IMG/VR virus record: IMGVR_UViG_2740892233_000002
DNA length: 10,190 nucleotides
Source: a virus
Lineage: Duplodnaviria > Heunggongvirae > Uroviricota > Caudoviricetes
Strand: one strand, 5' to 3'
The first letter of the stretch is position 1. The number at the start of each line of letters is the position of its first letter. Shown here in pieces: positions 2,098 through 2,982 of this stretch. The notes beneath the pieces are model-generated. The model made no database searches and was not told the origin of the DNA. It was given only the letters and a program-made list of their open reading frames with translations. The translations under genes and the position numbers were made by a program.

Positions 2098-2982
2098 TTA
2101 TTTCACCTGTACCACCACAAACTCATCCGGGTCCGGCAACACCATCAGCGGCGCGGACTGCGTCATGGTAAATTCACGGGCGGGATCCCCTACCGTCAGC
2201 CAGTGTTTCGGATAACGGGAAGAGGCCACCACAATGGCCAGATCGCCGTAATACCCTTTGAAGGACACCACCGCGCCCAGGTCTTTCACCGCTGTTTCGA
2301 GTTGCGAATTAGAGCCGCGACGGGTATCCAGTTTTTCGCGGAACAATTTAAAGCCATTCAGCAGACGCCAGACGGTACCGTCCATAATGGCAATATTCAC
2401 AAGACCGCTGGCCTGGTCGCAGTAGAGGTCAAGATCATGTGTAGGATCGAACGTGTCACGATCCTGTTTTGACCACTCCTTACCACTACCCTGAGTGATG
2501 TTATTCTTCGTCGACCTGCCAAAATCGACCTCAATTTTCTCGAACTGGTCTCCTTCCATCGTGTATTTGCCATACAGCACGGCATTCACCGCCTGCATTT
2601 CTTCCACCCGGACAATGGCGTGCTCTTCCTGTTTGAGGTTATCAGTGATGATACGCAGACGACGGTAGGCCGGGTCGTTCAGCTGAGCCGGATCTTCACC
2701 GGGAAGACGCTCAACCGCCTGCTGGTAATTAAATTCGTGTTTCGGCTTGACGTAGCCCGGACGTAACACGCGGGTTTCACCACCACGATGACGCAGCACT
2801 TTTCCTTCAACAACCGGGGAAACATAGGCCGCCACCGGCGTTTTTCCGGTAATTTTGTCCAGCATCACCTCTTCGGTATGGAAATTCACCGTACGGCGGA
2901 AAAACAGCTCCAGAAACAGCGCACGAAATTTCACTTTTTGTTCGGTATAACCGAGTAACTGGCGGGTCGTAAACAATCCCAT
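2098..2982 (-). CDS. E: Major capsid protein gpE-like (294 aa; lambda gpE is 341 aa)
   Basis: ATG at 2980..2982, TAA at 2098..2100. MGLFTTRQLLGYTEQKVKFRALFLELFF...PGYVKPKHE...RRGSNSQLETAVKDLG...TVGDPAREFTMTQSAPLMVLPDPDEFVVVQVK matches recalled lambda gpE along its length except for a missing internal segment. Confidence 0.9.
   Translation of the reverse strand: MGLFTTRQLLGYTEQKVKFRALFLELFFRRTVNFHTEEVMLDKITGKTPVAAYVSPVVEGKVLRHRGGETRVLRPGYVKPKHEFNYQQAVERLPGEDPAQLNDPAYRRLRIITDNLKQEEHAIVRVEEMQAVNAVLYGKYTMEGDQFEKIEVDFGRSTKNNITQGSGKEWSKQDRDTFDPTHDLDLYCDQASGLVNIAIMDGTVWRLLNGFKLFREKLDTRRGSNSQLETAVKDLGAVVSFKGYYGDLAIVVASSRYPKHWLTVGDPAREFTMTQSAPLMVLPDPDEFVVVQVK

Follow-up and report, generated by a model that had tools for sequence, protein, structure and literature searches.

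The stretch of DNA analysed here (the window; 10,190 nt, IMG/VR record IMGVR_UViG_2740892233_000002, Caudoviricetes) is a scaffolded draft sequence with four 10-N spacers, at 131-140, 662-671, 9101-9110 and 9526-9535, and the contigs beside these spacers have ends that overlap in part. Its main block, 672-9100, is gapless and collinear, at 99.3% identity, with the head region of a lambdoid prophage in E. coli O26:H11 strain 11368 (NC_013361, about 3.107-3.117 Mb), and the closest complete match to the window is strain 2313 (99.8%). On the minus strand the genes run from the terminase small and large subunits through W, the portal protein, an S49 protease/scaffold protein and a gpD-like decoration protein to the major capsid protein, FI, a head-tail joining protein, a Z-like protein and U. 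The same order (terminase, W, portal, C protease, D decoration, capsid, FI) is found in lambda and phage 21. Past the tail fibres of this prophage, in 11368 and other complete genomes, lie nleA and nleG, two type III effector genes. The features that bear on the present analysis are collected in Table 1.

Table 1. Features of the prophage head region, in window coordinates.
Feature	Position	Strand	Remarks
End of ISEc22 (IS66 family), 60 nt, within tail gene U	602..661	.	10-N spacer 662-671 next to it
FI (DNA-packaging protein) gene with Q43* (CAG to TAG)	1672..2046	-	stop codon 1918-1920; directly downstream of the capsid gene
Major capsid protein gene, deletion allele, 294 aa (lambda gpE / Pfam PF03864 family)	2098..2982	-	RefSeq WP_000522643.1
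Deletion junction, sole remaining copy of the 9-nt direct repeat TGTGGTGGC	2225..2233	-	from comparison with the parent allele; the + strand reads GCCACCACA
Head decoration protein (gpD homologue) gene	3040..3387	-	intact; lies upstream of the capsid gene, as expected
S49 prohead protease/scaffold gene	3424-4929	-	intact; head-module context
Portal gene	4919-6511	-	intact; head-module context
Terminase large subunit gene (lambda gpA homologue, 642 codons) with W570*	6698..8626	-	stop codon 6917-6919; last 72 residues cut off

The major capsid gene looks ordinary at first sight: it has a normal start and normal neighbours, with gpD upstream, FI downstream and the protease and portal genes further upstream, its reading frame is open, and PGAP labels it as an intact 'major capsid protein'. 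It encodes 294 aa, as stated in an earlier note on this DNA, which had proposed that a lambda gpE-type capsid gene had been shortened by an in-frame internal deletion. When complete E. coli genomes were searched with megablast, one match came back in two pieces with 144 extra bases between them, namely the 342-aa gene of another prophage in strain AUSMDU00014361 (L001:9199-10227), which was used as the reference allele. Apart from a single gap of 144 nt (48 aa, residues 254-301), the coding sequence in the window is identical to this allele at 885 of 885 bases. The gene in the window derives, by deletion, from an ordinary 342-aa major capsid gene of the lambda/phage-21 type (HK97 fold), and the alignment demonstrates the proposed deletion directly. 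The alignment given in the earlier note was essentially right, with homology up to YYGDLAIVVA and again from SSRYPKHW and one in-frame gap between them, although the loss measured against the 342-aa parent is 144 nt and 48 aa rather than the 141 nt and 47 aa then suggested. At the protein level, the parental block KTSYVAEDGTEKRYLPEGSLVLGNTAAEGIRCYGAIQDAQALSEGVVA, which stands between ...YYGDLAIVVA and SSRYPKHW..., is missing, and the window reads ...YYGDLAIVVASSRYPKHW... across the junction.

The parent aligns collinearly with lambda gpE over residues 1-341 (phmmer with the PDB 7vi9 sequence, E=1.3e-134), and the missing block corresponds to lambda gpE residues 254-300. The Pfam profile PF03864 (Phage_cap_E) covers the parent as one stretch, 1-329 of 329. 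On the 294-aa protein it scores 165.3 bits (gathering cut-off 22.9) in two separate stretches, the best of them spanning positions 1-240 of 329, and full-length collinear coverage is absent. Homology of the window protein to lambda gpE (341 aa; PDB 7VI9, 7VII, 7SJ5) is clear, and the gene 7 capsid protein of phage 21 is closer still, at 84.5% identity over the aligned parts. Unlike either of these, however, the window protein has no equivalent of lambda residues 254-300, and no other example of this gap turned up among 50,697 phage records.

The junction itself is informative. In the parent, the 9-nt repeat TGTGGTGGC occurs twice, at coding positions 750 and 894 (a spacing of 144 nt), and the window retains one copy; the earlier note had placed the junction near 2217/2218, whereas it in fact coincides with this retained copy (Table 1). 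Exact direct-repeat pairs of at least 9 nt are few in the parent gene (only five), and when random deletions of 30-300 nt were simulated in it, 0.0175% (1.75e-4) had a junction microhomology of at least 9 nt. Both the deletion and its repeat footprint are direct observations. Because of this footprint, the deletion may be attributed to replication slippage or RecA-independent illegitimate recombination, a single event of which would have removed one copy of TGTGGTGGC together with the 135 nt between the copies, turning IVVA-KTSY...GVVA-SS into IVVA-SS with the frame kept. Deletions that arise between short direct repeats by slippage or RecA-independent recombination are well known from the classical lacI deletion spectra. 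The window deletion resembles them in that one repeat copy and the intervening sequence are gone and the endpoints are ambiguous within the 9-nt exact repeat, and nothing about it is unusual by comparison. A separate natural deletion in the same capsid family has left a similar trace: two homologues of 282 aa (P0046/P0047) lack 60 aa between two DGT motifs, and the missing part corresponds exactly to another of the five repeat pairs, the 11-nt GGACGGTACCG at coding positions 600/780. Further in-frame deletions, of 13, 22, 26 and 29 aa, are present in singleton homologues at other sites of the capsid gene.

In a draft genome with several near-identical prophages, a short gene may simply be a product of misassembly or scaffolding. 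The window is, after all, an N-spaced scaffold with duplicated contig ends, and it contains clusters of SNPs that would fit collapsed or mosaic prophage sequence. Yet the capsid gene lies more than 1.4 kb from the nearest contig end, well within the block 672-9100, and the junction is not confined to this assembly. A 41-mer centred on the junction, which is unable to seed on full-length alleles, had a match at 100% identity in 117 of 5,426 complete E. coli genomes; each of these has a single, chromosomal match, and long-read assemblies and the finished genome of O26:H11 11368 are among them. Since the junction recurs in all these genomes, and since the 885-nt ORF is identical, without a single substitution, in five complete carrier genomes, an assembly error can be taken as excluded for all practical purposes.

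The carriers belong to O26:H11, O111:H11 and their relatives and include the O26:H11 strains 11368, H19 and 97-3250; the exact 294-aa protein (WP_000522643.1) is encoded on at least 1,000 public contigs. The deleted 144-nt segment, on the other hand, was found at 1,482 places in 1,047 of the complete E. coli genomes, so that full-length alleles are about ten times commoner. No match to the junction was found among the 50,697 phage records. One phage record that seemed to run across it, OR844803.1 (aa 1-257), was shown by DNA alignment to hold a full-length-type allele on a 1.5-kb contig that ends inside the segment. The earlier note had called the deletion unusual for this family; among genomes, however, the allele is not rare, as the 117 complete carriers show. 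The context on the nleA side is alike in four complete carriers, and in the fifth, AUSMDU00014361, the tail side has been replaced. The distribution of the allele, which is absent from free phage records, points to vertical inheritance at a fixed locus within the O26:H11 / O111:H11 clonal group. As the carriers are near-clonal (0 substitutions in 885 nt), the intactness of the ORF across them is uninformative, and dN/dS on the deletion allele is equally so because of the zero substitutions. The protein and the prophage are already present in public databases and published genomes; a literature search on this specific capsid deletion and on the O26 nleA prophage returned nothing specific.

The segment that has been lost is otherwise persistently kept. 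In tblastn searches against phages, all the listed homologues whose alignment extends past the junction in both directions have 46-58 additional residues at this point, from phage 21 (~85% identity) and lambda-like phages (~54%) down to Chi-like, Proteus, Pseudomonas and Burkholderia phages (~23-28%). Close protein homologues are almost always 342 or 341 aa long. The odd lengths of 329, 316, 313, 308 and 282 aa, which were considered as candidates for natural homologues of ~295 aa, are due to other in-frame deletions, at other sites, or to fragments, and do not represent a shared short form. Genuine ~295-aa homologues from functional phages, which according to the earlier note would have spoken against its reading, did not turn up, the junction being unmatched in the 50,697 phage records. 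Across 29 aligned full-length homologues (60-96% identity), nine residues of the segment are invariant: P269, N277, G282, R284, Y286, G287, I289, D291 and G298. The segment is nevertheless somewhat less conserved than the remainder of the protein, with a mean major-residue frequency of 0.71 versus 0.80 and invariant residues at 9 of 48 versus 92 of 294 positions.

This slightly lower conservation would agree with a tolerated variant, in which the 48 residues are a surface element that can be dispensed with, the 294-aa protein still folds and builds capsids, and the head module was functional when the deletion occurred. The deletion being in-frame, the ORF being intact in all carriers examined and the gpD, protease and portal genes being intact upstream would also agree with it. 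We nevertheless consider such a variant improbable. A dispensable element would hardly be expected in every listed junction-spanning phage homologue, even at ~23-28% identity, with nine invariant residues and no trace of the junction in the phage records, and the sporadic in-frame deletions elsewhere in prophage copies of the gene suit random decay better than a dispensable loop. The structure predictions and the state of the neighbouring genes, described below, point in the same direction.

A full-length allele with 97% identity was modelled with AlphaFold2 (pLDDT 76.9, pTM 0.80). Compared with the crystal structure of lambda gpE (7sj5_A), the model gave a TM score of 0.90 with an rmsd of 2.8 Å over 340 columns, and its secondary structure is credible on that account. 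Residues 254-301 lie in this model between the hairpin 238-252 and the hairpin 305-323 and contain strands 256-258, 264-266, 272-276 and 283-286 followed by a helix 292-296; the missing element, which the earlier note had proposed to find by structure prediction, would hence be four beta-strands and a short helix. Judging from the secondary structure of the model and the general topology of the HK97 fold, the segment would comprise the last part of the A (axial) domain and the return to the P (peripheral) domain; full-text literature searches found no open papers with residue-level domains of lambda gpE. When the 294-aa protein was modelled with the same homologues, from a shallow alignment of 29-30 sequences, the confidence collapsed to a pLDDT of 46.9 and a pTM of 0.36, values that have to be read in the light of AlphaFold not being validated for the effects of deletions. 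The hairpin 139-153 was kept in this model and the A/P-domain strands were otherwise limited to 78-80 and 273-275 (three residues each); downstream of residue ~160, essentially all A/P-domain strands were gone and one short strand was left. Such a low-confidence model fits a failure to fold, and both this collapse and the loss of four strands and a helix argue against the 294-aa protein being a working capsid subunit.

The capsid gene is not the only damaged gene of this prophage. The terminase stop W570* is common to O26 11368 and O111:H11 88-19539, with PGAP flagging an internal stop in both, and a 41-mer of the stop allele occurs in 88 complete genomes. The FI stop Q43* is specific to the strain of the window among the loci compared and is a further step of decay: the base at window position 1920 is A, versus G in O26 11368 and in the full-length prophage of AUSMDU00014361. 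The tail gene U is present in two pieces, 344-601 and 672-739. The parts of the window at 141-601 and from 672 onwards are contiguous in O26 11368, and the 60 nt between them match the ISEc22 end that lies beside J there; in AUSMDU00014361, U is cut by ISEc22 at the identical coordinate (601/602), and the tail module beyond it is DNA of another prophage. Beyond the limits of the window, an ISEc22 insertion divides J in 11368, 88-19539, H19 and 97-3250; these are the four carriers that allowed J to be examined, and all of them have both the capsid deletion and J::ISEc22. The prophage accordingly shows the inactivating lesions of a defective one, in genes essential for particle formation (terminase, FI, U, the capsid gene and, in relatives, J). 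These accompanying lesions, like the distribution of the junction in the population, were observed directly.

The lesions can tentatively be put in order. In H19 and 97-3250 the capsid deletion and J::ISEc22 are present and the terminase is intact, and for this reason (117 versus 88 genomes) the capsid deletion is probably older than the terminase stop. Decay would have been stepwise: the shared capsid deletion and J::ISEc22 would have been followed by terminase W570* in a sublineage, and U::ISEc22 and FI Q43* would have been gained in the branch of the window's strain. Recombination between co-resident prophages could, however, blur this order, and the clusters of SNPs in the window hint at exchange of this kind.

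The broken neighbours also bear on the tolerated variant, as J is disrupted in 4/4 examinable carriers and the whole tail module is lost in the fifth. The earlier note had left two outcomes side by side, a capsid protein unable to assemble and a tolerated natural variant; the first is favoured because the segment is kept in phages and holds invariant residues, four strands and a helix, because the model without it is poor, and because the neighbouring morphogenesis genes are broken. The 294-aa product would most likely be unable to complete the HK97 fold or to assemble procapsids, which would make the gene effectively a null allele. Taking these lines of evidence together, we put a probability of about 0.82 on ordinary prophage decay: the gene would be a dead capsid allele, rather than a novel type of capsid, within an effector prophage that is grounded and passed on vertically.

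A third possibility is that the truncated protein has been exapted as a dominant-negative 'poison' subunit that co-assembles with, and spoils, the full-length and nearly identical capsid proteins of lambdoid phages that superinfect the host or already reside in it. The subunit would then enter the capsomers of phages that share the head module and block the completion of the shell, and this might serve as lysogen interference against related lambdoid phages or as a control over co-resident prophages. The N-arm, E-loop and spine helix, which on the basis of the HK97 fold would provide contacts between subunits, are kept; the ORF is still open in 117 genomes; and in some hosts a full-length allele is co-resident and matches it at 100% identity apart from the deletion, AUSMDU00014361 (with 5 related places) being an example. 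However, an open frame is expected by default among near-clonal carriers with zero substitutions, and no sign of selection was seen. The gene belongs to a late operon, which a lysogen normally keeps silent, and its neighbours are acquiring nonsense mutations and IS insertions, as they would under neutral decay. Such a role is thus a distant prospect, less probable even than the tolerated variant, and decay of a dead allele remains the preferred reading.

Lambdoid prophages that carry effectors in EHEC are generally defective through multiple inactivations (PMC8112680), and several prophages of O157 Sakai have defects in head, portal and tail genes (Table 1 of PMC2669165). The prophage of the window is like the defective EHEC prophages of this type (Sp of O157:H7 Sakai, PPompW of O145:H28) in its T3SS effector cargo, nleA and nleG, in having multiple inactivated morphogenesis genes, in its IS insertions, and in being stably inherited within a clonal group. 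Unlike in those prophages, the capsid lesion here is an in-frame deletion with a seemingly intact ORF, which is not flagged as a pseudogene. A dead capsid gene does not need to mean an immobile element, as in O157 Sakai co-resident prophages can help to package those with head defects (PMC2669165).

The 294-aa allele leaves the knowledge of capsid biology unchanged; its significance lies elsewhere. It illustrates a pitfall of annotation, since pipelines label what is in all likelihood a dead capsid gene as an intact 'major capsid protein' (WP_000522643.1), and predictors of prophage completeness could therefore over-call the nleA prophage as intact. The junction is also a clean, single-copy marker of the O26:H11 / O111:H11 lineage, and, together with J::IS, the terminase stop, U::IS and the FI stop, it would offer an ordered series of decay in an effector-carrying prophage.

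Several minor features of the window deserve mention. Positions 8907-9100 and 9111-9304 represent a 194-nt overlap of contig ends across the 10-N spacer, as a result of which the terminase small-subunit region seems doubled and a spurious 237-aa ORF with XXXX (8598..9311) appears; the apparent duplication at 8907-9304 is an artefact of scaffolding, not biology. A similar overlap, of 64 nt, precedes position 9628. Positions 1-130 are the reverse complement of 9998-10127, the 3' end of a YlcI/YnfO-family gene near the right end, and are probably a short repeat contig positioned by the scaffolder. The 92 nt at 9536-9627, between two N-spaced contigs, were unmatched at the corresponding locus of O26 11368. 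The 58 differences between the window and O26 11368 are strongly clustered at 5693-6625 (portal/W) and 8480-9036 (terminase small subunit), with none in the capsid gene, which suggests either that recombination with other lambdoid prophages of the host took place in patches or that a short-read consensus collapsed.

The S49 protease/scaffold protein, finally, has three tandem repeats of ~38 aa in its scaffold-like C-terminal part (…EAKGREQLA…M(S/T)VE(Q/K/S)AR.ILAA…). It is 501 aa long, compared with 439 aa for lambda gpC, and the repeats account for its greater length.
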